From Escherichia coli (GTDB taxonomy: Bacteria; Pseudomonadota; Gammaproteobacteria; Enterobacterales; Enterobacteriaceae): 64,000 nucleotides of DNA. Made by a program: the position numbers and the translations under genes. Location: the NCBI RefSeq assembly GCF_044647545.1, contig NZ_CP172818.1. One strand, written 5' to 3'. Below are positions 25,371 to 50,801 of this stretch, piece after piece (the first letter of the stretch is position 1; every line of letters begins with the position of its first letter). The notes under the pieces were generated by a model. That model saw nothing but the letters and a program-made list of their open reading frames with translations, did no database searches and was not told the DNA's origin.

Positions 25371-27359
25371 CTACTTTTCTTCCAGGTAACTCTCTTCGAA
25401 GATTTCAATAGGGAGTGGGCGAGCAAAAAGGAAGCCCTGGGCAATACCAACGCCCGCTTTTGCCAGCCAGTCGCGTTGTGCTTCAGTCTCCACGCCTTCG
25501 GCAATCATTTGTAAGTTCAGGCTTTGCGCCAACATGATAATTGCAGCAATCATGCTGCTATCTTCCGGCAAGCCTTCAACAAACATTTTGTCGATTTTTA
25601 ACACGTCGATTGGCAACGATTTCATATGCTGCAGCTGACGCAGCCCTGCGTAGCCCATGCCGAAATCATCCAGCGCCACCCGAACGCCGGCATTACGCAA
25701 CGGGCGGAGGATTGCCACCGCTGCATGAGGGTCGTCAATACGTCGGCTTTCTGTCACTTCCAGAATCAGTGTTCCCGGCTGAATGCGATAGCGGGTTAAC
25801 AGTTCCAGCATATCCGCTACCATATTCGGGTGCATCAGTTGCAGCGCTGAGAGGTTTACCGACAAGGGCAACATAATGCCGCGCTCTTGCCAGGCAGCCA
25901 GCAGTCGACAGGACTCTTCCAGCACCCAGTGACCGACGGTAACCATCAGCCCACAGCACTCAATGCGATCGATTAAGCCATCCGGCAGATCCCAACTGCC
26001 ATCCGGTTGCTGGATACGCAGTAACACTTCCGCACTGACCAGTTTACCGCTGGTCATCTCGACCTGTGGCTGTAACCAAATCGCAAACTGATGATTTTCC
26101 AGTGCATTAAGGATATCGCTCTCTTCCGTCAACCGCTGCTGGGCGGCTTCCATCTGCTGCGGATCAAAGAACTGAATCTGATTCTTACCTTTATGGCGAG
26201 CGGTAAATGCCGCAGAAATAGCGCGACTGTAAAGCTGTTCGGCGGTGAGATCGCCGTAGAACATCGCCACGCCAATGCTACAGTGCGGACGGAGTTGAAT
26301 ACGTTCAATCGGCAGGCGCTCGCTCATGATAGTGAGCACTTGCTGACCTAAAGTGATTGCGTGCCACGGTTCCTGTACACCATTGGCAATGACAGCAAAG
26401 TCATAACCACTAATCTGCGCGAGGATCATACGTGGCGACAGTACCGATTTGAGTTTTTCCACCAGCGTCAGCAGCAGAATTTCTCGTTGCGCCTCTTTCA
26501 GCACGCCCGCAGTATCACGCAGGGTTTCACAGGTGATGATCATCAGCGCGGTGGTTTGTTTACGCGCGACAACCTGCTCCAGCATCTCCATCAGCAAGGC
26601 TTTGTTCGGCAAATCCGACACCGGGAAGCGCATCGCGTTTTCGTTCTGTTCTTCATAATGGCGCTGCAGCAATTGCTGGTTGAGGTTGTAACTGCGCACC
26701 AGCATACCGATTTCATCGTCCTGATGCAGACGTGGTAATGCCAGTTGGTAACCAACAAGCTCCTGGGCTGGGATGGCGTTAAGTTCACGAGCAATATTGC
26801 GTAACGGATGCAAAATCAGGCGGTTAATGCACCAGCTAATCGCCACCGTCAATATTAACGACAAAAGTAAGTAAATGGTCACTAACGTTGAGAGGGTGCT
26901 CATCACGAACTTATACATGCGGAAGGAATCCGCCTGTAGCACCAGATAGGCAATTGGCTGCGGGTTTGCCGGACGTTCGAGCGAGTAGACACCCAGCGAG
27001 ATTTGAACCGGTAGCTCAAACAGGCGAGTAACCATTACCGGTAGCGGACGCTCTGGAATAAAACTTTTACGCAGCGCCTGGAACTGGTTAGGCAGCACTA
27101 CATCGGCACGGCTGACCACGCCTGCCGGTTTAATGCTGGCAAGAATAGCTTCCGCTTCGGGAATATCGCCTTTCAAAATGGCAGAAGATAAGGGTTCGCG
27201 GACAGAGCGAGCAATGCTTTCCAGTTGCGTAGCCGTGTTATAGCGATTCTGCTGGACCAGATGGAACAGCAAAACGGTGCAAAAAATAAAAACGAACACC
27301 AGGACAACGGCTGCCACCATTGCCATCTGCTTGATTGTTAACGAGCGACTTACGCGCAA
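25371..27359 (-). CDS. pdeK: Membrane-bound c-di-GMP phosphodiesterase PdeK/YhjK (HAMP-GGDEF-like-EAL), 662 aa
   Basis: N-terminal TM/periplasmic region followed by a degenerate GGDEF domain and an EAL domain, directly upstream of the bcs locus. Confidence 0.88.
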
Positions 27360-27440: not shown

Positions 27441-30400
27441 TTACCAGTCGGCGTAAGGTATCAGCGGCTGCGGCGGTAAATCCATGTCACCCTGCCATCC
27501 GGCGGCGGAATAACGTACGTAGAGCAGGAAATGGCTGGGTGCGTAATCTTTCGCCTGCTGGATATCAATTGCCGTGCCGACAAACCAGTTGGAAGTAACA
27601 CGTCGTTCAAGTAATGCCCGCGCCGTATAGCCGAAGCCCTGACTGCTGCCGCCATCGTTGGATTGCCGCGCAGCTTCTTCCTGCCAGTCGGTCGGGATCA
27701 GATTCATCAGCGGATAACGCGGCATGGTTTTGGTGCGTGAATGCGACCACGAGCCAGACGCCCCCAGCTCCCACGACCAGTTTTCCGTCCGCTCCCGCCA
27801 CATCACCGGTATGGCAAACGACAGGTATTCCTGCGGGCTGTAGTAACCGCCCTGACCAAGTGAGTAGCCACTCAGGTCTTTGTCGTAATGCCAGATCATA
27901 TTGTTAAGACCAATGGTCACACGGCGATTATTCTGGTTGATGATCTTATAGTAATAGCCCGTCATCCAGCGCACGCGCCAGTTATCTTCGACATTTTTAC
28001 CGGTTAACTGGTCACCGCTAAGCGATGCCCAGACGCCGTTTGCTTCACCTTTATCGTAGCTCAGGCTTAGCCCCACGCCGTCGGCACGCACGCCGCCCCA
28101 TTTTTTCCCGGTATTGCTCGGAGAGTCTTTTTGCCCACCAAAGGCCAGCAAAGAACTGGAGATGGGCCGACGGTGGGCGTTAACGGTGTAACCCAGCGGC
28201 CCGATATCATCGCTGTAACTGATGCCGCCAACCACATCCACCACGTTGAAGCCCATCGGCGTGGTACCGATATCCCAGCTCCAGACGTCATTTCGCCAGC
28301 CGACCGCCACGCTGGCACCGGAATCCGACTGGCTGCGGTTGCCGCTACAATCCTGTAATGTACAGGTGCCCCAGTTGTCATCCCATTTACCATCGGCATT
28401 AGTGGAGAAACTGCCGACGTTCATATTGACGAAATCACTGCGAAAGAACATCCGCCCGTCAGAATACGGCGCGTCCACCTGCAACATAGTGGTGTGCGCT
28501 TTCAGATCGGAATAACCACCGGTGCCGCTCGAACCCCAGTAATCATGCTCAAGGGTGACGTTAAGATCCTGCTGGCGATAGAGGTCCGCCGCATCGCTGC
28601 GCACGCCGCGTTTCAGCCAGTCATCTTTCTCGTCGTTACGGGTCAGTCGGGTAAAGGTGTCGTTATCCTGCGGACGCGTCGTGGTCACACCGGATGCGAC
28701 CATCGCGTCTTTGTAGGTTTCCAGCGCCTGCTTTGGATCGCCCGCCTGCGCTTCAAACTTCGCACCGTCGCGCAGCACCATCGCGCTTTCCATCGACGGT
28801 GGCTGAGATTTTGCCTGCGGGATCAACTTATTAAACGTCTGCTGCGCCGCTGCGGTATCGACAAGCTGTGCCTGCACCAGCGCCACGCGCCGCTGAGTGT
28901 TCAGCGAGGCGTTATCGGTGGCGGGAAGTTTCGCCAGTTGACTGCGCGCCGCGGCTTTGTCGCCTGCGGCAATATCCACTTCCGTCAGGCCAAGAATGGC
29001 ATCGGCGTTATTCGACTCCCGCGCCAGCACATTCTGATACGCCGTGCGGGCGGCGGTGTAATCGCGTCGCTGTTGTGCCCAGTCAGCCAGCGTAAGATCA
29101 ATGCGCGTGGAAGGCGGTTGCTGGCGTAGCATCGCCTCCGCATCCTGTTCTTTGCCACTGTCACGCAGGCGATTAGCCGTTTCCAGAATCTGATCGCTTT
29201 GCAGTCGATTAACCAGCTCCTGAATATTGCTGTTCCATTGCGCGCGCGGCAGGCTGTTGATATGCGCCAGCGCCGCTCTGTCCTGGTCATGACCAGAGAG
29301 ATACAGCCCGTAAGCGTAAACCTGCTCCGGGTCGTTCGGCTTCTGCTGTGCCAGATTGCGCATTAATGTATCAGCCTGGCTGCGTTGTCCGGCCTGCCAG
29401 AGATCCTGCGAAAGTCGGTAAGTAATCCATACGCTGCCGGGATCCAGCGCCAGTCGTTGCCGCTGAAGTGCTGCCGCCTGCGCCCATTTGCCCTGGTTTT
29501 CCAGTGCCTCTGCCTGCTGTGCCAGACGGTCGTTTTGTAGGCTGCGTTCGATATCATCAATGCTACGCCGCTGACTGGCAGAGAGCGAGGCGATAAACGC
29601 TTCAGCTTTTTCTGGCGATTGCTGGCGGTAAATATTCGCCAGCCCGCGCACGGCGTTAGTGTTGCCGCTGTCCATACGCAGGGTCTGCTGATAATAGCGT
29701 TCAGCGGCGGGGTAATCTTTGCGCGCCATCGCCACATCGCCCAGCCCCAGCACTGCATAGCTGTCGGTGTTATCGACATTACGCGCCTGCTGGAACAGGC
29801 GTTCTGCCCGGTCAGGATTATTGGCTTTCAGCGCAGCATCGCCCTGCTGGATCGCCAGCCAGTAGCGGTTTACTTTCAGCAGACTGTTCCATTTGTCGTT
29901 GTTGCTGCTGTGCGGATCCAGTGCGAGGGCTTTTTCCAGATTCGCCACCGCATTGGCGCGATCGCCTTTCTGAGAATACGCCTGGCCCAGCGCCCCCAGA
30001 GCCTCACTGTCTTTCGGGTTCGCCCGCACCGCCTGTTGTAGTTCGGGAATGGCTTTACCCGCCATGCCAGAGTCCACCGCCGCTAAACCTTGCGCACGAG
30101 CGCGGAAAGCAGGGTCGGCCAGCTGTTTTTGCTGTTCTGCCAGTTGCGATTGCGCAGCCGCTACGCTATCGCCATCGCTAAAGATCGAGAGATATTTTTT
30201 CAGTGCCTGAACGCTGGCATCGCTGACGGGCATGTCTTTAATCTGCCCGTACCAGATTTTAGAGGCCCCCTCGCGTCCGGCGTTCGATTTCGCCATTTGT
30301 TCCAGAACGGCAAAACCTTCGTCACGGCGATCGCTACTAAACAGTAATAGCGCCAGATTGTTTTGCAGGCCCGTGTTGCCCGGCGTATCCGCATTAATGC

Positions 30401-30914
30401 GTTTTAGCTGATTAATCGCTTCGCCACGGCGGGCCGGAATTTTCGCCACCGTACTCCAGTACTCGACAGCAATGTCACCTTCCGGCGGCGCACCGTTGAA
30501 CAGTTTGTTGTAACTCGCCACAGCTTCTTCCGCATGACCGGTAGTTGCCTGCAATCTTGCCTGTTGCAGTGCCTGACGACCATCCGGCGTGGAAAGCAGC
30601 ATCGTAGTCCGCGACGATTTATACGCATTTGAACTCGGCGCTAACTGCGACAGCCGATCGAGCTGTTTTTGTGCGCCATCAATATCGCCCTGACGTAACA
30701 GAGAACGAAAACGGGCGGCAACGACGTCCGGGTTATTCGGATCAATAAGTTCCAGACGATACAACGACTGTTGCACCAGGTCTTCACGATGGGTCGCTTC
30801 GCCTAACCGAACTTGCTCCAGCAACTGTTGCTGAGCGGTTGGTGCTGCCTCGACCATCGGCATGACGGCCAGACCGAGGGAAAGCGTGAATATGTTTAGT
30901 GTGAATTTGCGCAT
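27441..30914 (-). CDS. bcsC: Cellulose synthase subunit C (TPR-rich periplasmic domain plus outer-membrane beta-barrel), 1157 aa
   Basis: 1157-aa ORF with signal peptide, multiple TPR repeats and a C-terminal barrel; last gene of bcsRQABZC. Confidence 0.93.
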
Positions 30915-32002
30915 TCCTGGCCCCAGTCAGGTAATAACTCACCTTTTGTCGAGAAGCGGAAACGGTGTTGATCCCAGCCTTGTCCAAACAGGGTCAGCAC
31001 ATAGTTGTAATAGGCATCGCTGCCGGGAAAGTTATCGGCCACGCGCTGGCGCTGAACGGCCTGTGCATCGCGGTTTTGTAAAAAGGGCAGCATGGCGGCA
31101 GAAAAACCGACCGGTCCTTTACCCTGCGCTTTCCCCGTAGCCACATCCACTTTTTCTGGCGGATAGCCGTTTTTCTCGGTGAATGTCGCCATCGGTTTAA
31201 ACCGGTTGAGCATCCGCGCTTTTTGCGGATCGCTGTCAGGCATCATGCCTACCCACATGTAAACGCGGATCGCGTCGTAGCTGCTGATCAATGTTTTTTC
31301 GGCTTTTAGCTGCCAGCCTTTGTCTTTCTCATAGCGCACCCAGTCTGGCGAAAAGCCTTTCGGGGCGGTTTCCAGCAATAAACGTTGATTGGTTTCGCGC
31401 AGCGTAGTCCACGGCGCGCCAAAGCGGGTGAAATACTGCGCCAGCGTCGGCGGCAGGTAGCTGGGGTTAAAACGCCAGCTGTTATCCTCTGCAAATCCCA
31501 CTTTGCCCGGCAACAACATGGAACCCAGCCCAGGCACCGTCACCACTTCCTCCCGCGCAATACGTTTTAACAACGCGCTGCCAATGTCGGTATAACGCTG
31601 CTCTTTCCACAAACGCCCCGCCTCCAGCAACGACCAGGCCATCCAGACATCACCATCGGAGGCCGAATTGCTGTCCAGCACTTCCCACTTACTGTTCTCT
31701 TTCTTGCCCCACAGCCATGCGGGCAAACGTTCTTTTAAAGAACCCTGAGCGAGATTGTTCTGCGTCCAGTCGAGAATATTATCGAAAGCTGCACGGTCGT
31801 TAGCCGCCAGGGCAAAGAACATGCCGTAACTTTGCCCTTCGGAAGTGGTGATTTTACGCGCGTCACTTGGGTCAATGACGCGCCCTTCCTGACTGATGTA
31901 ATCCTTTTTGAACTGCTCCCAGGCAGGCCAGTTGCAGGCTGCCTGAACACTAAAGGCAGCCAGCAGCAGCATCGTCACGAGTCCACTACGCAACACATTC
32001 AT
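30896..32002 (-). CDS. bcsZ: Endo-1,4-beta-glucanase BcsZ (GH8), 368 aa
   Basis: ORF 30896..32008 begins at TTG; trimmed to the ATG at 32000-32002 ([22 protein letters not shown]). The 3' end overlaps the bcsC start by 19 bp. Confidence 0.92.
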
Positions 32003-32008
32003 CTTCAA

Positions 32009-34348
32009 TTACTCGTTATCCGGGTTAAGACGACGACGGCTGATAATACGCAGCAAACGCCACAGTACCCATGCCAGCAGCACGACGCTGATTGCCGCCA
32101 GCACCGCCAGCAGAATCGGATGGTTTGCCAGGGCATACCATAAGCGTTCGAACCACGGCAGATGGCCAACGTAATAGACGTCGCCAACGCGTAGGCTATT
32201 GATACCGGACTCGCGGATCACCGCGACCGAACCGAACATGGTGGCGCGTTTGCCGCTATCGTTCACCGCATCGTTAAGCATTTCATAACCGCGTGGGCTA
32301 TCTGCCAGCAGCGCAATCACGCTACGCTGGTCGTTATACGGCGACTGGAAGCCAATCACCGCTGCCATCGCACCGGAAGAGGTCAGCGTTGACTGAGTTT
32401 CTGCCGCGCGATCGCTCTCGTCCGGTACAATGCCGGGGAACGGGGTCTGGCGCATCGGCGTTTTCACCCAGCTTTCGGTCGCCTGCACCAACAGATCGAT
32501 CTGCTTATCGTCTTTCAGTTTGTCCGGGATACCACCGACGATCATGATGTCGGCATCTTTGCCCTGAATGGTGCTGCCATCATCGGTCACCGTCAGGTTA
32601 ATCGCCGGGAAGCCCGTCTGCGCACCGATAAAGCCAACGGTATTCAGCAAGGTTTCCATCTGTGCTTCGTTAGGCGCTTTCGGCATCACGGTGATGGTTT
32701 GTGACAGATCCGCCATCCGGCTGAACGGGAAGCCCGCGTTAGCAAAGGCGCGTAGATCCGGCATCGGAATGAAGTGGTAATACTTCGAGAAGTCGATGGT
32801 GGAATCATCACCAATCACCACATGATTCTGCACCGGCTGGAAGGTAATGCAGTTATCCACCGAACCGCCCGGCATCGGGTTCATATACTCAAAGTCAAAG
32901 CGCAGCTGGTTGGTCGCGCCCAGTTTCAGCGCCGGAATAGAGACATCCGTTTTGCCATCCAGCAAACCTTGTAATACCGGAATCCGCAGCAGCAGGCGGT
33001 TCGCCTCCTGTTTACTGCTCAGGTTGAAGGATTGCAGGAACTGGTTATTCAGGCTGATATCCATCCGCGAACTGTCTTTCACCGGCGGCATGGTGTAGCG
33101 ATAGTTGATATCCATATCAATGCCGGTACTGCGCATCAGGTAGAGATCCGGCGGCAGATTTAGCGAAACGTTAATCGCTGCTGGCTCAAGACCGCTGGAT
33201 TGTAACTGTTCTTCATAGGTTTTCAGTTCACCAAAGGTGACCGGACGATCGGTACGCACCCAGTTCGGCGCATCGTACGGCTTACGCGGTAGCAGCGGTT
33301 TCACTTCATTCACTACCACGCTTTCACCACGGAACAGAATGTTACCCTGAGCGATACCTTTCGCTGCCTGCAACAGGTCTTTGTCGTCACGACCAAACAC
33401 CACCAGCAGTTTGACGTAAGGATTCTGCGGATGGTTGATCATCTCAATCACCGGGGCTTTTACCGCCGGATGATCGTGCAGGAAGTCCGGGCGTTTGTCA
33501 TTAGTGGCAAAAACAATGGCATTGCGATTCGGCAGTTGGTTATAGAGCACCGGGAAATTCTGCCCACGCCAGCCAGAACGCGAACCAAACCACGAGGCGA
33601 CAATAGCTGATGCTTGTTGCAATCCAGTATCTGGCGTACCCGCAAAGACCATCGGCAAGGTGTTGGTGCGGTTATCACGCGGGTCAAAGAATGGTACCGG
33701 GAAGTGTGACAGGTCATTCTTCACATTCAGGGTCTGATAGGTCAAATCCAGTCCACTGCTCCGCCCAACATCCAGCCAAAGCGTGGTGCTGGCCGGGTTT
33801 TCGCACACGTCCTGATAATGGCCGACAAACTCCAGCCGCACACGGTTGAAGTCGGTAATAAACAGTGGGTTAATGGGCATTTGCGCCAGCGTTTTTTTAC
33901 CCAACTGTTCTTTGGTCACTGGCAGCACGCCCATCAGCTCATCATTGAGATAAACCTTTAACTGCGACTGGACAGGCAGTAACGATGGCGATGGCGTGTA
34001 TTCGAGGTTGAGCATCGCCTTCGTCACCACTTCATCGCTGCGCATACCAAACTCAATGCTGCCGTTCGGGTTAATGCCACGTAGCACCATGCTGCCCGGC
34101 GGCGGCGCGATTTGCGCAAAGGTCAGCTTCACATCACGCGAAGGACCGTTCTGCGCCACGATGGGGGCATCAGCGCCCTGCACGCCTGGCATCACTTGCC
34201 CCACCTGCGGATTTTGTTCCGTCTGGGCGGCTACAGCTGGCTCAGCATTGATCAGTGGTTGCGTTGCTGGCGTCGCCTGCGTCATGAAAGAGGGGAACGC
34301 ACTCATCCCCATAGCCACTGCACAAATCCAGAATAGTTTTCTTTTCAT
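32009..34348 (-). CDS. bcsB: Cellulose synthase periplasmic subunit BcsB (779 aa)
   Basis: ORF 32009..34435 trimmed to MKRKLFWICAVAMGMSAF at 34346-34348. Confidence 0.93.
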   Translation of the reverse strand: MKRKLFWICAVAMGMSAFPSFMTQATPATQPLINAEPAVAAQTEQNPQVGQVMPGVQGADAPIVAQNGPSRDVKLTFAQIAPPPGSMVLRGINPNGSIEFGMRSDEVVTKAMLNLEYTPSPSLLPVQSQLKVYLNDELMGVLPVTKEQLGKKTLAQMPINPLFITDFNRVRLEFVGHYQDVCENPASTTLWLDVGRSSGLDLTYQTLNVKNDLSHFPVPFFDPRDNRTNTLPMVFAGTPDTGLQQASAIVASWFGSRSGWRGQNFPVLYNQLPNRNAIVFATNDKRPDFLHDHPAVKAPVIEMINHPQNPYVKLLVVFGRDDKDLLQAAKGIAQGNILFRGESVVVNEVKPLLPRKPYDAPNWVRTDRPVTFGELKTYEEQLQSSGLEPAAINVSLNLPPDLYLMRSTGIDMDINYRYTMPPVKDSSRMDISLNNQFLQSFNLSSKQEANRLLLRIPVLQGLLDGKTDVSIPALKLGATNQLRFDFEYMNPMPGGSVDNCITFQPVQNHVVIGDDSTIDFSKYYHFIPMPDLRAFANAGFPFSRMADLSQTITVMPKAPNEAQMETLLNTVGFIGAQTGFPAINLTVTDDGSTIQGKDADIMIVGGIPDKLKDDKQIDLLVQATESWVKTPMRQTPFPGIVPDESDRAAETQSTLTSSGAMAAVIGFQSPYNDQRSVIALLADSPRGYEMLNDAVNDSGKRATMFGSVAVIRESGINSLRVGDVYYVGHLPWFERLWYALANHPILLAVLAAISVVLLAWVLWRLLRIISRRRLNPDNE

Positions 34349-34358
34349 CGCGTTATCA

Positions 34359-36977
34359 TCATTGTTGAGCCAAAGCCTGATCCGATGGTTGTGCCGTTTC
34401 GCTCCGCTCCGGGCGGCGCGGAATAAACGATACAACCCAGGAAACCAGAGAAGTCAGCACACGGAATATGCCCTTCACCGAAGAAGGCGCAAACTCCGCC
34501 AGATGGCGGTAGCCACGGAAGCCGAGCTTCAGAATATCCAGCAGACTTTCCAGCGGCTTATCTTCCGGATAGCTGTCCTGCCAGAGCGCCCATGTATCCG
34601 CACGGGCAAACGTACACTGCACAAAATCGATATGTTGCTGGGTGGTGAGCGGCATTAATTTCAGCCCAACTTCATTACCCATCACGCGCGCCACCTGGGT
34701 CGGGAAGACGTATTCCTGCTGACCGCGTTTAAGCAACAGATTCACTTTCTGCCCTTCCAGAATCTGCGCCTGACCGTTGATCTTGATCCCCAAACCACCG
34801 TCGGAGAAATCCTGAACGGTACACGAGAAGAGGTGACCATCTTCGCGGGCAATTGCCGCGGGCATCGTCATCTCCACGCGGTGCGATCGGCGTACCTGTT
34901 TGCTTTCTACCGATACCGCAACTGCGCCGCCAAGAACAATCAGGTTGTAGAATACCCACACCATACTGACGACCACGGTGAGCATCTCGGTTGGCGGGCC
35001 ATAGAAGTAGCGCCAGATGCCTACCGCAACGCCCACCAGGTTGAGCAGAACAAGGAAGATGTAGGGCCGCGAGATCACCCAGTCGACGTACTCTTCTTCC
35101 ACCAGTCCACCTTTGGCGGTGACGTTAAATTTGCCTTTGTGCGGGTTAATCAGCGCCACCAGCGTCGGTGGTGCGATATACCACGCCAGCACCGTTTCGT
35201 AGATTTCACTCCAGAAAGAGTGGCGATATTTGCCCTGGATCTTCGAGTTGGTCAGGCTGGCATGAATCATATGCGGCAGCACGAACAGGGCGATCATCAA
35301 CGCTGGCGCATAGATGATGTAGGCATGCAGCAGCAGGAACGCCAGCGGCGCAGTCAGGAAGATCAGTCGTGGAATGCCCGACAAGAAGTGGAACATGGCG
35401 TTGACATAGCACAGCCGCTGAGCAAACTTCAGCCCTTTACCGGTGAGCGGGTTATCGAGACGGAAGATTTGCACCATCCCGCGCGCCCAGCGAATACGCT
35501 GACCGATATGCGCCGACAGACTTTCGGTCGCCAGCCCCGCCGCCTGCGGAATACGCATATATGCAGAGGTGTAGCCACGACGGTGCAAACGCAGAGAAGT
35601 ATGCGCATCTTCGGTTACCGTTTCGACAGCAATGCCGCCAATCTCATCCAGCGGCTTACGGCGAATCACCGCACATGAACCGCAGAAGAAGGTGGCGTCC
35701 CACATATCGTTGCCATCCTGCACCAGACCATAGAACAGCGTACCTTCGTTCGGTGTTTTACGGAAACGTCCCAGGTTGCGTTCAAACGGGTCCGGTGAGA
35801 AGAAGTGGTGCGGCGTCTGCATCATCGCCAGTTGTTTTTCTTTCAGGAACCAGCCCATGGTCATTTGCAGGAACGATCGCGTTGGTACGTGGTCGCAGTC
35901 GAAAATCGACACGAACTCGCCTTTGGCATATTTCAGCGCATTGTTGATGTTGCCCGCTTTCGCATGTTCATGAGTGGTACGGGCGATATATTTCACCCCC
36001 ACGTTTTGCGCAAACTGGCGAAACTCTTCCCTGCCGCCGTCATCAAGGATCCAAATGTTCAGCTTGTCTTTCGGCCAGTCGATACCCAGCGAGGCGTAAA
36101 TCGTATTTTTCACCACGTTGAGATCTTCGTTGTAAGTCGGGACAAAGATATCCACCGACGGCCACAGCGACATATCTTTCGGCAATGGCACCGGCTGACG
36201 ATTCAGCGGCCATACCACCTGGAAGTAACCGAGCACCAGCACAATCCACGCGTACGTTTCGGCGAACAGCAGAATAAGCCCGCACACCAGGCTGACCGGA
36301 TCGTCCCAGTTCAGCGTAGAGGTGTAGCGCCACCAGATATAACGGCAAGAAACGGTCAGCGACAGCACAATCAACATTAGCGCCGAGAAGCGCCCCGGCA
36401 TCCGCCGTACGATCAGCGCTACACCCCACAGCAGCATCAGGAAGATAAACTGCGCCAGCGGGTTAAACGGCTGGGTAACGCAGATTAACGCCAGAATCAG
36501 CGAGAAGGTGACGATGATACCGAGGATCAACCGCCGCGCCCCGGCGCTCAAATGGCCGAGTTCTTTTTTCTCATCGAGATGCTGTGTTTTATGGCTAACG
36601 CGCTCAGGCAGCTCGTTCATCCATTGATGGTAACGTCCACGAATATTCTGCAGACCTGAAAATGTCCGCCTGCGCGGTTTCGGCGTTTCTTTGCGCGATG
36701 TACCGATCAGTAACCAGCATGTTTGAATGAGATAACGGACCGGGTCCAGCGGACGCGGACGCGAGGCGTTGATATGCGGATACAGGTTTTTATGTTCTGC
36801 GCGAATACGCTGCCAGCGCGGGTGCTCCAGCGGAATAAAAATCCAGGCCAGGATCAACCAAAAACAGCCGAGCGTCGCGCTGAAAGCCGACGCACCGTGA
36901 CGACGATAATCGCGATAACGCCCGATAAGCCGCGCGTTGACCGGCGGGATAAGCAACCACCGGGTCAGGATACTCAT
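34359..36977 (-). CDS. bcsA: Cellulose synthase catalytic subunit BcsA (GT2 plus PilZ), 872 aa
   Basis: ORF 34359..37025 trimmed to MSILTRWLLIPPVNARL at 36975-36977. GT2 motifs (DDG, DCDH, QRIRWARG) and a C-terminal PilZ region are visible. Confidence 0.95.
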   Translation of the reverse strand: MSILTRWLLIPPVNARLIGRYRDYRRHGASAFSATLGCFWLILAWIFIPLEHPRWQRIRAEHKNLYPHINASRPRPLDPVRYLIQTCWLLIGTSRKETPKPRRRTFSGLQNIRGRYHQWMNELPERVSHKTQHLDEKKELGHLSAGARRLILGIIVTFSLILALICVTQPFNPLAQFIFLMLLWGVALIVRRMPGRFSALMLIVLSLTVSCRYIWWRYTSTLNWDDPVSLVCGLILLFAETYAWIVLVLGYFQVVWPLNRQPVPLPKDMSLWPSVDIFVPTYNEDLNVVKNTIYASLGIDWPKDKLNIWILDDGGREEFRQFAQNVGVKYIARTTHEHAKAGNINNALKYAKGEFVSIFDCDHVPTRSFLQMTMGWFLKEKQLAMMQTPHHFFSPDPFERNLGRFRKTPNEGTLFYGLVQDGNDMWDATFFCGSCAVIRRKPLDEIGGIAVETVTEDAHTSLRLHRRGYTSAYMRIPQAAGLATESLSAHIGQRIRWARGMVQIFRLDNPLTGKGLKFAQRLCYVNAMFHFLSGIPRLIFLTAPLAFLLLHAYIIYAPALMIALFVLPHMIHASLTNSKIQGKYRHSFWSEIYETVLAWYIAPPTLVALINPHKGKFNVTAKGGLVEEEYVDWVISRPYIFLVLLNLVGVAVGIWRYFYGPPTEMLTVVVSMVWVFYNLIVLGGAVAVSVESKQVRRSHRVEMTMPAAIAREDGHLFSCTVQDFSDGGLGIKINGQAQILEGQKVNLLLKRGQQEYVFPTQVARVMGNEVGLKLMPLTTQQHIDFVQCTFARADTWALWQDSYPEDKPLESLLDILKLGFRGYRHLAEFAPSSVKGIFRVLTSLVSWVVSFIPRRPERSETAQPSDQALAQQ

Positions 36978-37726
36978 GATGCACTCCCGACTGGCGTTTT
37001 CAGCCCGGAATAGTTCAACAGGCACCAGTTAGCCAGCGTCAGTATCTCTTCAGCCGCCAGCGCATCACTGCGGTATTCACCGACTGGTTGCTTAGCCGCC
37101 AGGCATTGAGCCATCGCTTCATCACGATGAATGAGTATTGGCAGTAATCGGCGCTGGCTTTGCAACCAAAGCTGGTAAATATCGTCCTGAACCTGACTGC
37201 CGATACGGAAGTCATTAATCAAAATATGCGCGCCATCCGGCAGCGCTTGCTGATGCAGTCGGATATGGCAGTTGGCATCCACATTGACGATTGCCAGCGA
37301 GTGATCGCACAAACTCAGCAGCTGGTGGGTTATCTGTGAGGCATCACGCGGTAAGTCAATTAAAATCCACTGGTAACGCCCGCTGGCTTTTAGTTGCTGT
37401 AAGCCGGAGCAAATATCGCTCAGCCGGGTTTGCCAGTGCTGTGGATTTTCTTGTTCTTCAATGGATAACTGACCAAAAGGCAGCAAATCGAGCTGCGAGG
37501 TATAGCGCAACCCGGCGTCACGCCAGTCCTGGCCATCCAGCATAGCTCTGGCCCAGCCCTGACGGTGGGTAAAATCAACGTTAAATGACAGGCGCAACAA
37601 GTTGTCCGGGCAGGCATCGACCACCAGGACATTTTCTCCCAACATTTGTAATGACCAGGCTAATGCGGCGGTGATGGTTGTTGTCCCCACGCCTCCCCGC
37701 ACCCCCTGCAATCCCAGTACGGCCAT
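36974..37726 (-). CDS. bcsQ: BcsQ (YhjQ), MinD/ParA-family ATPase of the cellulose secretion system; intact 250-aa frame
   Basis: Uninterrupted 250-codon ORF MAVLGLQGVRGGVGTT... (Walker-A-like). The stop overlaps the bcsA ATG by 4 bp (ATGA). Codon 6 is TTG (Leu). Confidence 0.9.
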   Translation of the reverse strand: MAVLGLQGVRGGVGTTTITAALAWSLQMLGENVLVVDACPDNLLRLSFNVDFTHRQGWARAMLDGQDWRDAGLRYTSQLDLLPFGQLSIEEQENPQHWQTRLSDICSGLQQLKASGRYQWILIDLPRDASQITHQLLSLCDHSLAIVNVDANCHIRLHQQALPDGAHILINDFRIGSQVQDDIYQLWLQSQRRLLPILIHRDEAMAQCLAAKQPVGEYRSDALAAEEILTLANWCLLNYSGLKTPVGSAS

Positions 37727-37737
37727 TCACCAATCCC

Positions 37738-37926
37738 CTACTTTTGTTGCGCAAACTCTGCCAGCAACGGCCAGCGTTTTAATGCCGCGGCCAACTGTTC
37801 GCGTTGGGAAATATCGGCATAATCAATATCAGGCAGTGAAAATGCCTGCTTTAACGCCAAAATATCATTCTGGAAGATATAGCCTATCGCGGGATCAGGC
37901 AGAGTATCTGGTTCATTGTTATTCAT
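37738..37926 (-). CDS. bcsR: BcsR (YhjR), small cellulose-biosynthesis regulator (62 aa)
   Basis: ORF 37738..37968 trimmed to MNNNEPDTLPDPAIGYIF at 37924-37926; 11 bp upstream of bcsQ. Confidence 0.85.
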   Translation of the reverse strand: MNNNEPDTLPDPAIGYIFQNDILALKQAFSLPDIDYADISQREQLAAALKRWPLLAEFAQQK

Positions 37927-38197
37927 TTGCTTGATCCCTATGAAATAACCGTACCGTTCATGAGACAATTCTAACTGTGAGCATTTCGCCGGTTTATTGT
38001 TTACGGCGAGACGGGAATGTGCTCACTTTTTGACTTTCCGTTACGCAACAGAAAAAGTTAAAAACGAAAAGACTAAAATCACATGTCTTGTGACCTGCTA
38101 AATTGATTCACATGCTAAATCTGATAAGTTTTAATTTCAATGGTAGGTTTATTTCTTAGCTTTCGCTAGTAAACTGATAATCAGACAAAATGTTGAC

Positions 38198-39769
38198 ATG
38201 AGGGACATTGTGGACCCTGTATTCTCTATCGGTATCTCATCATTATGGGATGAGCTGCGACATATGCCAGCAGGCGGCGTCTGGTGGTTTAACGTCGATC
38301 GCCATGAAGATGCTATCAGTCTGGCGAATCAAACAATTGCATCCCAGGCTGAAACCGCACACGTCGCGGTCATTAGCATGGACAGCGATCCAGCGAAAAT
38401 CTTTCAATTAGATGATTCTCAAGGGCCGGGAAAAATAACATTATTTTCAATGCTAAATCATGAAAAAGGTCTATACTATTTGGCCCGTGATTTGCAGTGT
38501 TCTATTGATCCCCATAATTACCTTTTTATTCTTGTTTGCGCAAATAACGCATGGCAAAACATTCCTGCCGAGCGGCTTCGCTCATGGTTGGATAAAATGA
38601 ATAAATGGAGCCGGCTAAACCATTGTTCGCTTTTGGTAATTAATTCCGGAAATAATAACGATAAACAATTTTCATTGTTACTTGAGGAATACCGTTCACT
38701 TTTTGGTCTTGCCAGTTTGCGTTTTCAGGGCGACCAACATTTGCTGGATATTGCTTTCTGGTGCAACGAAAAAGGGGTCAGCGCCCGTCAGCAGCTTAGC
38801 GTTCAGCAACAAAATGGTTGCTGGACATTAGTTCAACACCAAGAGGCGGAAATCCAACCACGCAGCGACGAAAAACGCATTCTGAGTAATGTTTCTGTAC
38901 TTGAAGGTGCGCCGCCGCTATCGGAACACTGGCAACTGTTCAACAATAACGAAGTCCTGTTTAATGAAGCCCGTACCGCTCAGGCGGCGACGGTGGTCTT
39001 TTCTTTACAACAAAATGCGCAAATCGAGCCACTGGCCCGCAGCATTCATACTCTGCGTCGCCAGCGCGGTAGTGCGATGAAAATCCTCGTACGGGAAAAT
39101 ACCGCTAGCCTGCGCGCCACCGATGAACGTTTGTTATTGGCCTGCGGTGCAAATATGGTTATCCCATGGAATGCCCCACTCTCCCGCTGTCTGACGATGA
39201 TCGAAAGCGTGCAAGGGCAGAAGTTTAGTCGCTATGTGCCGGAAGATATCACTACCTTGCTGTCAATGACCCAGCCGCTCAAACTGCGTGGTTTCCAGAA
39301 GTGGGATGTGTTCTGTAATGCCGTCAACAACATGATGAATAACCCTCTATTACCTGCCCACGGTAAAGGCGTTCTGGTTGCCCTACGTCCGGTACCGGGT
39401 ATCCGCGTTGAGCAAGCCCTGACGCTATGTCGCCCTAATCGCACCGGCGATATCATGACCATTGGCGGTAATCGGCTGGTGCTGTTTCTCTCATTCTGTC
39501 GGATTAACGATCTGGATACCGCGTTGAATCATATTTTCCCATTGCCTACTGGCGACATTTTCTCAAACCGTATGGTCTGGTTTGAAGATGATCAAATCAG
39601 TGCCGAGCTGGTGCAGATGCGCCTGCTTGCCCCAGAACAATGGGGCATGCCGCTGCCTTTAACGCAAAGTTCTAAACCGGTCATCAATGCCGAGCACGAT
39701 GGTCGCCACTGGCGACGAATACCAGAACCAATGCGACTGTTAGATGATGCTGTGGAGCGCTCATCATGA
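38198..39769 (+). CDS. bcsE: BcsE (YhjS), c-di-GMP-binding GIL-domain protein (523 aa)
   Basis: 523-aa ORF divergent from bcsR; first gene of bcsEFG. Confidence 0.92.
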
Positions 39770-39957
39770 TGACCATCAGCGATATCATTGAAATTATTGT
39801 CGTTTGCGCACTGATATTTTTCCCGCTGGGCTATCTGGCGCGGCACTCTTTGCGACGCATTCGCGACACCTTACGTTTGTTCTTTGCTAAACCTCGTTAT
39901 GTTAAACCGGCCGGGACGTTACGCCGCACGGAAAAAGCCAGGGCAACCAAAAAATGA
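39766..39957 (+). CDS. bcsF: BcsF (YhjT), small single-TM membrane protein (63 aa)
   Basis: 63-aa ORF with hydrophobic N-terminus; overlaps the bcsE stop (ATGA) and the bcsG start. Confidence 0.85.
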
Positions 39958-41633
39958 CTCAATTTACGCAAAATACCGCCATGCCTTCTTCCCTCTGGCA
40001 ATACTGGCGCGGCCTTTCCGGCTGGAACTTCTATTTTCTGGTTAAGTTCGGCCTGTTGTGGGCGGGATATCTTAACTTCCATCCGCTCCTCAATCTGGTG
40101 TTTGCCGCGTTTCTGCTGATGCCCATTCCGCGCTACAGCCTGCATCGCTTACGCCACTGGATTGCCCTGCCGATCGGCTTTGCTTTGTTCTGGCATGACA
40201 CCTGGTTGCCTGGCCCGGAAAGCATAATGAGCCAGGGTTCGCAGGTGGCGGGGTTCAGTACCGATTATTTAATCGACCTTGTCACACGCTTTATTAACTG
40301 GCAGATGATTGGGGCCATTTTTGTTTTATTAGTGGCCTGGTTATTCCTGTCACAATGGATTCGCATTACCGTTTTTGTGGTTGCCATTCTGCTATGGCTG
40401 AACGTACTTACCCTGGCGGGACCAAGTTTCTCCTTGTGGCCAGCCGGTCAACCAACGACCACTGTAACAACGACGGGTGGTAACGCAGCGGCAACCGTTG
40501 CGGCGACGGGTGGCGCACCGGTAGTGGGTGATATGCCCGCACAAACTGCACCGCCAACAACGGCGAACCTTAACGCCTGGCTGAATAATTTCTATAACGC
40601 GGAGGCGAAACGTAAATCAATCTTCCCGTCTTCGCTGCCCGCTGATGCTCAGCCATTTGAACTACTGGTGATTAATATCTGTTCGCTTTCCTGGTCGGAT
40701 ATTGAAGCCGCCGGGTTGATGTCGCATCCGCTGTGGTCGCATTTCGATATTGAGTTCAAGAACTTTAACTCCGCCACCTCCTACAGTGGCCCGGCGGCGA
40801 TCCGTTTACTGCGCGCCAGCTGCGGGCAGACTTCGCACACTAATCTGTATCAACCGGCAAATAACGACTGCTATCTGTTTGATAACCTGTCGAAACTGGG
40901 CTTTACCCAGCACCTGATGATGGGACATAACGGCCAGTTCGGCGGTTTTTTGAAAGAAGTTCGCGAAAATGGCGGCATGCAGACCGAATTGATGGATCAA
41001 ACAAATCTGCCGGTTGTTTTGCTGGGCTTTGATGGTTCGCCGGTTTATGACGATACCGCCGTGCTTAACCGCTGGCTGGACGTTACCGAAAAAGATAAAA
41101 ACAGCCGTAGTGCCACGTTCTACAACACGCTTCCACTGCATGACGGCAACCATTATCCGGGCGTCAGCAAAACAGCGGATTACAAAGCGAGGGCGCAGAA
41201 ATTCTTTGATGAACTGGACGCCTTCTTTACTGAACTGGAGAAATCGGGTCGTAAAGTGATGGTGGTCGTGGTGCCAGAACACGGCGGCGCGCTGAAGGGC
41301 GACAGAATGCAGGTATCTGGCCTACGTGATATCCCTAGCCCGTCTATCACAGACGTCCCCGTTGGGGTGAAATTCTTCGGCATGAAGGCACCACATCAGG
41401 GGGCACCGATTGTCATCGACCAACCGAGCAGCTTCCTGGCTATCTCCGATCTGGTGGTTCGCGTTCTTGATGGCAAGATTTTCTCCGAAGACAATGTTGA
41501 CTGGAAAAAACTCACCAGTGGGTTGCCACAAACAGCACCGGTCTCCGAGAACTCAAATGCAGTAGTTATTCAATACCAGGATAAACCGTACGTTCGCCTG
41601 AACGGCGGCGACTGGGTGCCTTACCCGCAATAA
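39954..41633 (+). CDS. bcsG: BcsG (YhjU), membrane phosphoethanolamine transferase modifying cellulose (559 aa)
   Basis: 559 aa with N-terminal TM segments and a C-terminal alkaline-phosphatase-superfamily domain. Confidence 0.92.
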
Positions 41634-41643
41634 GAACGAAAAA

Positions 41644-41669
41644 GGCCGCAGAGTTTCCCCCTGCGGCCT
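41644..41669. terminator. Bidirectional hairpin between convergent bcsG and ldrD
   Basis: ggccgcag-agtttccccc-tgcggcc, flanked by an A-run upstream and a T-containing tail downstream. Confidence 0.55.
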
Positions 41670-41718
41670 GATCCGGGCGCAAATTGCCATTACGGCAGCC
41701 TGACGCCCACATGACACG

Positions 41719-41826
41719 TTACTTCCGCTTATTCAGCCAGTTCACGATCAGACTGGCAAGAATGCCAGCAATGACCGGAGCCGCTAAATCATGCCAGAAG
41801 GCCATGCCCAGCTCTGCGAGCGTCAT
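41719..41826 (-). CDS. ldrD: LdrD, type I toxin peptide (35 aa)
   Basis: C-terminal 35 codons of ORF 41719..41994 read MTLAELGMAFWHDLAAPVIAGILASLIVNWLNKRK, the Ldr peptide family; ATG at 41824-41826. Confidence 0.85.
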   Translation of the reverse strand: MTLAELGMAFWHDLAAPVIAGILASLIVNWLNKRK

Positions 41827-41875
41827 ATAGCCGCCTGAGTTGTAATGACAACGTTTCGCGGCTATTCTTGAGTGG

Positions 41876-41941
41876 TCTAGAGTCAAGATTAGCCCCCGTG
41901 ATGTTGTCAGGTGCATACCTGCAACGTGCGGGGGTTTTCTC
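41876..41941 (+). ncRNA. rdlD: RdlD antisense RNA (type I antitoxin of ldrD); approximate coordinates
   Basis: Plus-strand segment opposite the ldrD leader ending in hairpin cccccg...cgggggttttct; position inferred from the known ldr/rdl arrangement, ends not verified. Confidence 0.5.
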
Positions 41942-42301
41942 TCTCCAGCAACCAATGCCACCAGGGATAAAGCCCCCGCAACATTGCGCCTCACCGGAAC
42001 CTTTCCGGCTTGCCACTGATTCTACGATTGCTTTTTACCGTCAGCACCCGGCAATCTTCCTCATTGCGTGATGCATTCCAGCTTAATTTCTTTATTTGCA
42101 ATAGTTGCAGTTCATATCCGGGCTGACTCCAGACTGGTAGTGAAATGCGCATTTTTGTAGAATTGCGCCTCCTCGCGACCTCCCCAGTGAATCTGTTGCC
42201 TCATTTTTTACATACTGCGTATTCGACTTCTCCACCTGTTGCGCAAGAGAAACTGGGTTTATTCATTTTTGCGAGGCCGACTTCTTTCTGGACAGGACTT
42301 T

Positions 42302-43573
42302 ATGCAGCACAACACACTACCGAAACACGATCAGAAAATGCCGTTTACACGCTACGACTTCGGCTGGGTTTTATTATGCATAGGCATGGCGATTGGTGCC
42401 GGAACCGTGCTGATGCCAGTACAAATTGGCTTGAAGGGAATTTGGGTATTTATTACCGCAGCGATCATTGCTTATCCTGCCACCTGGGTAGTGCAGGACA
42501 TTTATTTAAAAACCCTTTCTGAAAGCGATTCCTGTAATGACTACACCGATATTATCAGTCATTACCTGGGGAAGAACTGGGGAATTTTCCTCGGGGTTAT
42601 CTACTTTTTGATGATTATCCACGGGATTTTTATCTACTCTCTCTCCGTGGTTTTCGACAGCGCCTCGTACCTGAAAACCTTCGGTTTAACCGATGCCGAT
42701 CTTTCACAATCTCTACTTTATAAAGTCGCCATTTTCGCCGTACTGGTGGCAATTGCGTCTGGTGGTGAACGATTACTGTTTAAGATTTCCGGGCCAATGG
42801 TGGTGGTCAAAGTAGGGATTATCGTCGTGTTCGGTTTTGCGATGATCCCGCACTGGAATTTCGCCAATATAACCGCCTTCCCGCAAGCCTCCGTCTTTTT
42901 CCGCGATGTCCTGCTTACCATTCCCTTTTGCTTCTTTTCTGCGGTATTTATTCAGGTACTTAACCCAATGAATATTGCCTATCGTAAACGGGAAGCGGAT
43001 AAAGTACTGGCAACCCGGCTCGCGCTGCGTACCCACCGAATTAGTTATGTCACGCTCATCGCGGTGATCCTGTTTTTTGCCTTTTCGTTTACCTTCTCAA
43101 TTAGCCACGAAGAAGCCGTTTCTGCCTTTGAACAAAATATCTCGGCACTGGCACTGGCCGCGCAGGTGATCCCTGGGCATATCATTCATATCACCTCTAC
43201 GGTGCTGAATATCTTTGCCGTACTGACCGCATTCTTTGGCATTTATCTCGGTTTCCACGAGGCCATTAAAGGCATTATTCTCAATCTGTTAAGCCGAATT
43301 ATTGATACCAGGAAAATTAATTCACGCGTGCTGACTCTGGCGATCTGCGCTTTTATCGTCATTACGTTGACGATTTGGGTTTCGTTTCGTGTATCGGTGC
43401 TGGTGTTCTTTCAGTTGGGAAGCCCGTTATATGGCATTGTGTCGTGCCTCATTCCGTTTTTCCTGATCTATAAAGTCGCACAACTGGAAAAACTTCGCGG
43501 ATTTAAAGCCTGGCTGATTCTGCTTTACGGCATTTTGCTATGCTTGTCGCCACTGTTGAAGCTGATTGAGTAA
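42302..43573 (+). CDS. yhjV: Putative amino-acid transporter YhjV (HAAAP/STP family), 423 aa
   Basis: ORF 42239..43573 trimmed to the ATG at 42302 ([22 protein letters not shown]); polytopic membrane protein. Confidence 0.88.
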
Positions 43574-43602
43574 ACCGGAGCGCACGGCCCCGGTTTTGTG
43601 AG

Positions 43603-44607
43603 TTAACGCTGCGGATTTTCATCCTGATCAACAGCAAAACAAGCTACCAGTTGACCGCCGTAGTCTTTTAGCTGCGGCTGCAACTGGGTGCAGGGGCCGA
43701 AGCGCCGACGACAGCGGGCGTTAAACGCGCAGCCCGGCGGTGGATTGAGCGGGCTTGGCAGTTCACCGGTGAGCTTGATGCGCTCGCGGCGATCGTCCGG
43801 GTTCAGGCGCGGCGTCGCGGAGAGTAGCGCCTGAGTGTACGGATGACGCGGGTTATTGAAGATTTGGTCCTTCGTTCCCTTCTCCACGCAGCGGCCCAGG
43901 TACATCACCATCACTTCATCGGCAATGTGCTCAACCACTGACAGGTCGTGGGAGATAAAGACATAAGACAGCCCCAACTCCTGCTGCAAATCCATCATCA
44001 GGTTGAGCACCTGCGCACGCACTGAGACGTCCAGCGCGGAAACCGGCTCATCGGCAATCACCACATCCGGGTCGAGCATCAGACCACGGGCAATGGCGAT
44101 ACGCTGACGCTGACCGCCGGAGAACATATGCGGATAGCGGTCGTAATGCTCGGTTTTCAGGCCGACTTTCGCCATCATCGACAGGGCTTTTTCCCGACGC
44201 TGATCTTTGCTTAAGCTGGTATTAATAAGCAGCGGCTCTTCAAGAATTTGCCCAACTTTTTTACGCGGATTTAGCGAACCATAGGGATTCTGAAAGACGA
44301 TCTGGATTTTCTGCCGACGCAACTTCTGCGCCTGCGGATCGTGCTTGAGCAGATCCTGCCCCTGGTAATACAGCTCACCACCGGTGGGCGTTTCGATCAT
44401 CGTCAGTAACCGACCGAGGGTCGATTTACCGCAGCCAGATTCACCTACTACTGCCAGCGTTTTGCCACGTTCAAGGTTAAACGAAACGCCGTCCAGCGCC
44501 TTCACCAGACGTTCCGGCGCGAACATACCTTTCTTCACCGGATAATGTTTTTTCAGGTCGATAGCCTGCAACAGCGGTTGTTGCGAGGTGGCCTCTTGCG
44601 TACTCAT
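43603..44607 (-). CDS. dppF: Dipeptide ABC transporter ATP-binding protein DppF (334 aa)
   Basis: Walker [10 protein letters not shown] and the ABC signature are visible; last gene of dppABCDF. Confidence 0.95.
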
Positions 44608-45587
44608 AGTGTCGGCCTCCCGGCATCATCAAGTGGGTAGTGGCATTTGGACTGACGCCCGTCAGCGAGCATATTCAGCGCCGGTTCTTCAGCGCGGCAT
44701 TTGTCAGTGGCGTAGGGGCAGCGCGGGTTAAGCAGGCAGCCGTTCGGACGGTCATACTTGCCGGGAACAACACCTGGCAACGACGCCAGACGTTCTTTAT
44801 CCTGAGCAAATTCCGGCAGCGCACGCAGCAATGCCTGAGTATACGGGTGACGCGGCGCATGGAAGATGGCGTGCGCATCGCCCGTTTCTACTACCTGGCC
44901 TGCATACATCACGATAATTTTATGTGCCGCTTCCGCCACCAGCGCCAGGTCATGGGTAATTAACACCAGCGCCATGTTCTCTTTCTGCTGTAGCTCCAGC
45001 AGCAGTTCGATGATTTGCGCCTGAATGGTCACGTCCAGCGCGGTGGTCGGTTCATCGGCAATCAGCAGTTTTGGCCGACAGGCAATCGCTATGGCGATCA
45101 TCACGCGCTGGCTCATGCCGCCGGAAAGCTGATGCGGGTAAACATCCAGACGCGATGCCGGATCGGGAATACCGACCTGATTCAGCAGGTCAATCGCCCG
45201 CTGACGGCGGGTACTTTTGTTGCCGCCCTGATGCACCTTAATCGCTTCCATAATCTGGAAACCCACGGTGTAGCACGGGTTAAGGCTGGTCATCGGGTCC
45301 TGGAAGATCATCGCCACTTCGGCACCCACCAGGTTGCGGCGCTCTTTTTCTGAGATACGCTGTAAATCCTGACCGTTAAACTCCAGCTTTTCCGCCATTA
45401 CGCGGCCCGGATAATCAATCAGCCCCATAATCGCCAGCGAACTGACCGATTTACCAGAGCCGGACTCACCCACAATCCCGACCACTTCGCCCTGTTTTAC
45501 GCTGTAGCTGATGCGGTCTACGGCGCGGAACGGTGCGCTTTCGTCGCCGAAATGCACCGATAATTTATCTACATTTAATAACGCCAT
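44604..45587 (-). CDS. dppD: Dipeptide ABC transporter ATP-binding protein DppD (327 aa)
   Basis: Walker A GESGSGKS; stop overlaps the dppF start by 4 bp. Confidence 0.95.
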
Positions 45588-45597
45588 CTCGAACCTC

Positions 45598-46500: not shown

Positions 46501-46509
46501 GATGTCCCC

Positions 46510-47529: not shown

Positions 47530-47679
47530 AACCCGGATTCTCTATAATGACCCGCAGCCTGGAACTGCGTGTCTGTATTGCTCACAAATCAATTCCCGCC
47601 TTTGTGGGACAGGGAATGAAGTATTGCTGCCGGATGGCGCTGCACGCAGAGGCACAGCGCCACCGGGTATGGCTTTTAA

Positions 47680-49860: not shown

Positions 49861-49937
49861 GGATAAGGCGGTCGCGCCGCATCCGACAATGGGCCGGTAC
49901 ATTTGCCTGATGCGACGCTGACGCGCCTTATCAGGCC
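49861..49937. repeat. REP/BIME cluster upstream of dppA
   Basis: ggataaggcggtcgcgccgcatccgac and gcctgatgcgacgctgacgcgccttatcaggcc are REP-type palindromic units. Confidence 0.7.
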
Positions 49938-50690: not shown

Positions 50691-50697
50691 GGCGCGT

Positions 50698-50727: not shown

Positions 50728-50765
50728 CCGCCCCCGGGGGTTCTCTTCCTCATGAGCTACAGATG

Positions 50766-50797: not shown

Positions 50798-50801
50798 AAT
50801 T

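Follow-up and report, generated by a model that had tools for sequence, protein, structure and literature searches.

Does the cellulose locus of this Escherichia coli chromosome still encode the whole secretion machine, and does any part of it go beyond what is known of the system? The locus occupies positions 27441-41633 of a stretch of 64,000 nucleotides from contig NZ_CP172818.1, called here the window, to which all coordinates refer. We are very confident that the region is a canonical, genetically complete E. coli-like (type II) cellulose secretion locus, accompanied by neighbouring genes for phosphodiesterases of cyclic di-GMP (c-di-GMP). All sequence hallmarks of a type II system were found: bcsRQ lead the synthase operon, bcsB, bcsZ and bcsC lie downstream of bcsA, and a bcsEFG operon diverges from them. 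This class reportedly goes back to the classification of Romling and Galperin (2015). Gene content, order, orientation, lengths, junctions, domains and motifs are the same as in that system, and only allelic variation was seen here. No sequence evidence contradicting the Bcs identification was found. The first-pass annotation of this DNA had called the locus well-described biology, and we agree: it is canonical and already known. It adds nothing new in itself, being a textbook case among the best-characterised exopolysaccharide systems, for which cryo-electron microscopy structures of the assembled machine exist. The type II structures derive from E. coli 1094 and from K-12-derived constructs.

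The layout was checked with the list of open reading frames (ORFs) and with a script extracting each reading frame from the window. The bcsRQABZC genes fill 27441-37926 on the minus strand and bcsEFG fill 38198-41633 on the plus strand, and none of the nine bcs reading frames contains an internal stop codon. The coordinates, strands, overlaps and shared 271-bp control region given by the first-pass annotation were all reproduced to the base. The same gene boundaries are used in the RefSeq annotation of strain FDAARGOS_497, whose locus is identical, and in that of K-12 MG1655. No fewer than 15 E. coli chromosomes in RefSeq, among them those of FDAARGOS_497, IMT16316, MS6198 and ECONIH1, carry the whole 14,193-bp interval at 100% identity, and some match to it is present in 5,424 of 5,426 complete E. 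coli genomes. Its flanks are those of the K-12 neighbourhood, with yhjG-pdeH-kdgK-yhjJ-dctA-pdeK on one side and ldrD/rdlD-yhjV-dppFDCBA on the other.

When the proteins were compared with Pfam, each expected family was matched far above its cut-off (Table 1). The domains on which the first-pass annotation had staked its reading were all found, namely GT2 and PilZ in BcsA and EAL in both PdeK and PdeH. Its GIL domain in BcsE is supported by an end-to-end match to PF10995, the GIL-domain family, and by an I-site-like RxGD motif (R415-T-G-D). BcsA carries the GT2 motifs DCD360, FFCGS430, TED455 and QRIRW493 and the PilZ motifs RRSHR696 and DFSDGG723, and matches the solved E. coli structures 9fmv, 7lby and 9b8v over its full length. 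BcsE does the same with 9fnn and 6ybb, and BcsG with 9b8v, 9fmv and 6pcz. In BcsG, the nucleophile S278 is present together with the metal ligands C243, H396 and E442. BcsQ has a deviant Walker A motif, GVRGGVGTTT, at residues 8-17, and BcsC begins with a signal-peptide-like sequence.

Table 1. Annotated, candidate and flanking features of the window (aa, amino acids).
Feature	Position	Strand	Description	Evidence or remark
pdeH (yhjH)	20162-20929	-	stand-alone EAL c-di-GMP phosphodiesterase, 255 aa	Pfam EAL, E=4.5e-32
pdeK (yhjK; PGAP name hmsP)	25371-27359	-	membrane-bound phosphodiesterase, TTG start	Pfam GAPES3, HAMP, GGDEF, EAL
bcsC	27441-30914	-	outer-membrane export subunit, 1157 aa	Pfam BCSC_C and multiple TPR families (TPR repeats, C-terminal beta-barrel)
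bcsZ	30896-32002	-	periplasmic GH8 endoglucanase, 368 aa	Pfam Glyco_hydro_8, E=1e-160; E55 and D243 present
bcsB	32009-34348	-	periplasmic co-catalytic subunit, 779 aa	Pfam BcsB, E=4.5e-224; 12 substitutions relative to K-12
bcsA	34359-36977	-	c-di-GMP-activated cellulose synthase, 872 aa	Pfam GT2 families, Cellulose_synt, PilZ
bcsQ	36974-37726	-	MinD/ParA-like (SIMIBI) ATPase, 250 aa, intact	Pfam CBP_BcsQ, E=8.8e-114
bcsR (yhjR)	37738-37926	-	62 aa, leads bcsRQABZC	Pfam CBP_BcsR
Divergent control region, as annotated	37927-38197		271 bp	36% GC, AT-rich
71-bp block	38107-38177		segments 38107-38125, 38130-38151 and 38159-38177	two short variable spacers
Candidate bcsR promoter	38112-38140	-	-35 TTGAAA (38140-38135), 17-bp spacer, -10 TAGCAT (38117-38112)	consensus scan
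Candidate bcsE -10 region, TAGTAAACT	38167-38175	+	TAGTAA or TAAACT	invariant columns
bcsE, as annotated	38198-39769	+	c-di-GMP-binding regulator, 523 aa	Pfam CBP_BcsE, E=1.4e-226
GAGGGA Shine-Dalgarno-like motif and GTG (38210-38212)	38200-38212	+	motif about 6 nt upstream of GTG	invariant
bcsF	39766-39957	+	single-pass membrane protein, 63 aa	Pfam CBP_BcsF; nucleotide-identical to K-12
bcsG	39954-41633	+	phosphoethanolamine transferase modifying cellulose, 559 aa	Pfam CBP_BcsG
GC-rich hairpin 3' of bcsG	41643-41669	T-run on minus	interpreted as the terminator of ldrD	on the bcsG side only a possible terminator
ES205 small RNA	776-847			Rfam
GadY small RNA (acid-resistance island)	6627-6740			Rfam
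naRNA4	49857-49937			Rfam
tRNA	50805-50878			Rfam
cspA 5' untranslated region thermosensor	62075-62502			Rfam

That all parts are intact, as the first-pass annotation had stated, is a non-trivial claim, and it holds because codon 6 of bcsQ is TTG (Leu) in the window. The same codon is TAG in K-12 MG1655, where bcsQ is a pseudogene and the strain is cellulose-negative. The lesion (17T>A) deprives K-12 of cellulose, and its experimental repair has been described (PMC5944007, citing Serra et al.). The bcs region of MG1655 (b3529-b3538) is otherwise identical in architecture, with the same gene lengths and order, protein identities of 98.4-100% per gene, and a control region differing by 5 substitutions and 1 indel. 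The catalytic and binding motifs that were checked carry none of the substitutions relative to K-12. Genomes matching the locus at 100%, strain IMT16316 among them, have the same allele, and the record of a strain named ST648 is the best match for the adjacent region; the allele may belong to the ST648 lineage.

As read from its genome, then, the source strain is still genetically equipped to make cellulose. Sequence intactness is no guarantee that cellulose is made, and two points weigh against a direct step from one to the other. Output also depends on DgcC or DgcQ and on CsgD, which are encoded outside the window, and some E. coli strains without bcs nonsense mutations, such as BL21-Gold(DE3) and H10407, are nevertheless cellulose-negative (PMC5944007). 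The locus could accordingly be intact in sequence and silent in phenotype in its source strain, through missense variants or because upstream signals are lacking. Each large subunit differs from its K-12 counterpart at 3-16 amino acids; among group A strains lacking bcs nonsense mutations, some show no detectable cellulose (PMC5944007); and loss of cellulose has been selected repeatedly in some lineages, with convergent loss described in ST95 (PMC10881479) and an IS1-mediated deletion of the control region seen in other genomes. We nevertheless think a silent locus rather unlikely. The substitutions leave the checked motifs untouched, and numerous independent isolates of human, bird and environmental origin have the identical allele, an argument for its being maintained.

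The 1.5-kb segment running from bcsQ through bcsR and the control region into bcsE is unbroken in 5,122 of 5,426 complete E. coli genomes; about 190 others have partial matches and 115 have no match at all. In E. coli SW071611, IS1 has taken the place of the entire control region together with the adjoining 5' ends of bcsR and bcsE (L085 1939-2778). Such a replacement would be expected to silence both bcs operons together.

How, then, are the parts expressed together? Two polycistronic operons, bcsRQABZC and bcsEFG, diverge from the one AT-rich control region, and within each of them the overlapping or near-abutting stop and start codons may help to co-translate the subunits in fixed proportions. 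The junction overlaps are as first claimed: 4 bp at Q/A, E/F and F/G, each formed by ATGA, and 19 bp at Z/C. The remaining genes are separated by gaps of 11 (R/Q), 10 (A/B) and 6 bp (B/Z). For comparison, 79 loci from other Enterobacteriaceae species were fetched with a BcsE alignment query and their genes were placed by tblastn. Across about 80 species the Q/A junction is -4 in 76 of 81 loci, Z/C is -19 in 70 of 76, A/B is +10 in 62 of 80 and B/Z is +6 in 65 of 76. The E/F junction is -4 in 60 of 80 loci and -7 in 18, and F/G is -8, -4 or -7 in 75 of 80.

These overlaps could also simply reflect how compact E. coli operons tend to be, with cistrons that initiate independently and without functional coupling. 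Among gene overlaps in bacterial genomes, the ATGA type is the most frequent. The adjacent dppFDCB operon has junctions of -4, +10 and +9, the same style, so that the bcs junctions are not unusual. Several downstream genes carry their own Shine-Dalgarno-like sequence (GGAG for bcsA and for bcsF, AGGGGA for bcsQ, all well spaced), which weighs against coupling in that the sequence does not require it. Against simple compactness, the exact junction lengths recur in 62-76 of about 80 species despite a nucleotide identity of only about 77% for loci of other genera. The script found no well-placed Shine-Dalgarno sequence for bcsB, and the AGGA of bcsC abuts its ATG, which favours re-initiation by ribosomes that end translation of the upstream gene. 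Moreover, BcsR and BcsQ need co-expression to fold (PMC7439463). We regard independent initiation as a serious possibility, without expecting it to be the answer. Translational coupling would be a reasonable, if ordinary, reading of the geometry, which fits the data without amounting to proof.

The comparison of related loci also bears on where BcsE begins. Among 82 aligned loci of related Enterobacteriaceae, 81 of them full-length, the codon aligned to the annotated ATG at 38198 is a start codon in 12 and a non-start codon in 70 (AAG in 42, ACG in 13, TAG in 2, and others). By contrast, the codon aligned to GTG 38210, the fifth codon of the annotated gene (Val5), can initiate translation in every one of the 81 full-length loci, being GTG in 66 and ATG in 15. 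In the aligned loci it is always preceded by (A)AGAGGGAC, which places an invariant GAGGGA about 6 nt upstream. The script found no Shine-Dalgarno sequence before the annotated ATG, whose own G belongs to the GAGGGA motif, and Enterobacter and Klebsiella annotations begin BcsE at the GTG aligned to 38210. The alternative is that BcsE does start at ATG 38198, with 523 aa, the conserved GTG being merely Val5. That ATG is used by RefSeq and by the K-12 annotation; it is in frame and open, and the aligned codon of other Escherichia and of Salmonella reads ATG or TTG (L006-L009, L014, L078). Set against the missing Shine-Dalgarno sequence, the 70 non-start codons with their two TAG, the uniform start at the GTG position and the annotations of the two other genera, this appears unlikely. 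BcsE thus probably starts four codons later, at GTG 38210, and would comprise 519 aa; the control region would then measure 283 bp instead of 271. If true, the corrected start shifts BcsE numbering by 4 and affects N-terminal tagging of the domain reported to bind S10.

Upstream of this start lies the control region, which, with the intact bcsQ and the probable correction of the BcsE start, makes up what the locus offers beyond the known system. We aligned 80 unique bcsR-bcsE intergenic sequences and scored conservation per column. A 71-bp block stands out, formed in order by TTCACATGCTAAATCTGAT, TTTAATTTCAATGGTAGGTTTA and GCTTTCGCTAGTAAACTGA, with most positions at least 95% conserved. Its mean identity to the window is 85%, compared with 43-50% for its flanks and 71% for the BcsE protein; it is nearly invariant across roughly 25 genera, while the flanks are no more alike than random sequence. 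Of the 5,136 E. coli genomes that have the block, 5,114 (99.6%) carry it with an identity of 99% or more, and the adjacent 161 bp reach this in only 662 of 5,142. The distance from the block to the bcsE start is nearly fixed in the aligned sequences, whereas the distance to bcsR varies. Salmonella, Citrobacter, Enterobacter, Klebsiella, Kosakonia, Kluyvera, Raoultella and other Enterobacteriaceae share the junction geometry, the block and the GAGGGA-GTG start of bcsE; Pantoea and one uncultured lineage are without the block. Intergenic lengths range from 155 to 302 bp. Escherichia, Salmonella, Citrobacter and Kluyvera have a longer segment on the bcsR side (244-302 bp in total), in contrast to 155-165 bp in most other genera.

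What could this block do? No function has been assigned to it in the searchable literature. The block may hold the back-to-back core promoters of both operons, with predicted transcription starts near 38105 on the minus strand and 38182 on the plus strand. Such an arrangement would account both for where the block ends and for where its variable spacers fall. Both hexamers of the candidate bcsR promoter are at least 95% conserved in every column. The candidate bcsE promoter has no recognisable -35, and two distant relatives (L082, L084) have TATAAT at about the position of its -10 candidate. Two points speak against these assignments: the consensus scan gave no more promoter-like sites than shuffled sequence did, and the putative promoters are called from consensus and conservation only. 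That the conserved sequence reaches far past the hexamers suggests that an additional factor may bind. A by-eye, informal comparison of the block with the remembered consensus sequences of CRP, FNR, CpxR, RcsAB, IHF, sigma-28 and sigma-E gave nothing convincing. Judged from the alignment, the block best fits back-to-back core promoters together with an operator for an as yet unnamed factor.

A bolder proposal would be that the block is a shared operator, serving a new regulator or an elongation-control input such as BcsE-S10/NusB, that sets transcription of both bcs operons together in all Enterobacteriaceae. The central 22-bp segment (38130-38151) lies about 41.5 bp before the predicted transcription start of bcsE, where a class II activator would sit. 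We put this forward tentatively and rather doubt it. A scan placed a terminator-like hairpin inside bcsR, at 37848-37830 on the minus strand, and inside the same gene Zouhir et al. predicted a putative intrinsic terminator in connection with their BcsE-S10/NusB hypothesis (PMC7439463).

Alternatively, the block could act as RNA, as a structured leader, a riboswitch or a small RNA, and not as a DNA promoter and operator. Conservation far past the promoter hexamers, in three segments of 19-22 nt, would suit such a role, and one published hypothesis has transcription elongation across bcsRQ controlled by way of BcsE, S10 and NusB (PMC7439463). However, the block has no Rfam match even at E<=10. 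Its only small hairpin (TTAGC/GCTAG, about 38155-38170, found by eye) is broken without compensation in Enterobacter. The variable spacers sit exactly at promoter-spacer positions, and, since the block ends at the two predicted start sites, much of it would be transcribed in neither direction. We consider an RNA function very unlikely and keep to the promoter and operator arrangement.

A coding role and a mobile origin were also set aside. A 15-codon mini-ORF within the block (ATG 38112 to TAG 38159) was dismissed, since it lacks a Shine-Dalgarno sequence, varies in length from genus to genus and is equally invariant at all three codon positions, which is no coding signature. The control region is not a repeated or mobile element either, as the 37950-38060 segment and the block are both single-copy per genome. 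This segment of about 110 bp, the bcsR-side leader, is absent from most other genera and single-copy in E. coli; it holds a 17-nt imperfect inverted repeat (37967-37983 / 38020-38036). A further inverted repeat of 21 nt, 81% complementary, pairs the bcsR ribosome-binding region (37938-37958) with the central block segment (38139-38159), 180 nt apart. It could matter only for a bcsR transcript starting upstream of 38159.

The literature offers little with which to compare these predictions. Searches of the ROSE (PMC10301672), differential RNA-seq (PMC4681348) and Salmonella ChIP-exo (PMC10794520) studies gave no start-site entries for bcsE, bcsR, yhjR or yhjS. A literature search found no published dissection of an enterobacterial bcs promoter and gave only Vibrio, Burkholderia, Dickeya and acetic-acid bacteria.

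Our analysis covered the presence and integrity of the Bcs parts, and for the mechanism we rely on published work. BcsA polymerises UDP-glucose once dimeric c-di-GMP binds its PilZ domain, and BcsB forms a periplasmic crown. BcsRQ and BcsE build a cytosolic vestibule that is recruited to the membrane by BcsF and retains c-di-GMP beside BcsA. The nascent glucan receives phosphoethanolamine from BcsG, is trimmed by BcsZ and is exported across the outer membrane through BcsC (PMC7840130, PMC11470070, PMC7439463, PMC8892547).

The two neighbouring phosphodiesterase genes are likewise in order. The first-pass annotation had put pdeK immediately upstream of the locus, which is true only in plus-strand coordinates: the gene lies on the same strand as bcsC and begins 81 bp downstream of its stop codon. 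The scan saw no terminator-like site between the two. PdeK has the EAL motifs EVL444, DDFG564 and EGVE621 and differs from its K-12 counterpart by 5 amino acids. Its GGDEF domain (Pfam E=2.8e-11) gave no [GSRH][GD][DE][ED]F motif on scanning and is degenerate, in agreement with a previous report (PMC7397504). PdeK docks on BcsB and acts as a local c-di-GMP sink opposing DgcC (PMC7397504). In the window, as in this local module, pdeK follows bcsC without another gene between them, encodes an identical set of domains and has its EAL site intact; the difference is that dgcC is absent from the window. The other gene, pdeH, was placed about 7 kb away by the first-pass annotation, and the measured distance to bcsC is 6.5 kb. 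PdeH has the motifs ELL48, DDFG158 and EGVE215, is 100% identical to K-12 PdeH and is annotated as such in the genome with the identical locus. PdeH lowers the global c-di-GMP pool.

Some observations concern bcs genes elsewhere and the DNA around the locus. Full bcs loci borne on plasmids were considered and rejected, the matching records being chromosomes, or chromosome fragments, filed as plasmids. The only truly plasmid-borne part is an orphan, full-length bcsC together with about 120 bp of the 3' end of bcsZ. It is found on pEC1515-2 (NZ_CP021846.1; L003 6988-10461) and about 125 other E. coli plasmids, many of 90-270 kb, and is flanked by IS1, IS3 and Tn3. Its ORF is intact and 99.3% identical in protein to K-12 BcsC. 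The plasmid protein ends in PYAND, as opposed to PYADW, and thus is without the C-terminal aromatic residue typical of outer-membrane barrels.

Between bcsG and yhjV the window has one copy of the ldrD toxin gene (41719-41826, minus strand) as well as the rdlD antitoxin RNA (41875-41940, plus strand). FDAARGOS_497, with its identical bcs locus, has four tandem ldr copies, so that close relatives differ in how many copies this type I toxin-antitoxin array contains. The roughly 12 kb beside bcs, from bcsG to eptB (41000-53000), match the best genomes at 98.7% at most, and the strain of the window is not itself one of the complete genomes. Genomes with the identical bcs locus carry an IS3-family element between dppA and tRNA-Pro, and the 1.7-kb dppA-tRNA gap of the window appears too small for it. 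The drop to 98.7% next to an identical locus suggests a recombination boundary, or a lineage outside the complete genomes. The remaining Rfam matches (Table 1) are what one would expect in this region of an E. coli chromosome; naRNA4 is a REP-derived RNA after dppA, and the tRNA match is annotated as tRNA-Pro at the matching position of FDAARGOS_497.

In summary, the window carries a cellulose locus whose intactness is of modest practical meaning, since cellulose shapes biofilm architecture and host interaction and has repeatedly been lost elsewhere. The invariant 71-bp block provides a precise target for mapping the promoters and regulators of the enterobacterial bcs operons.

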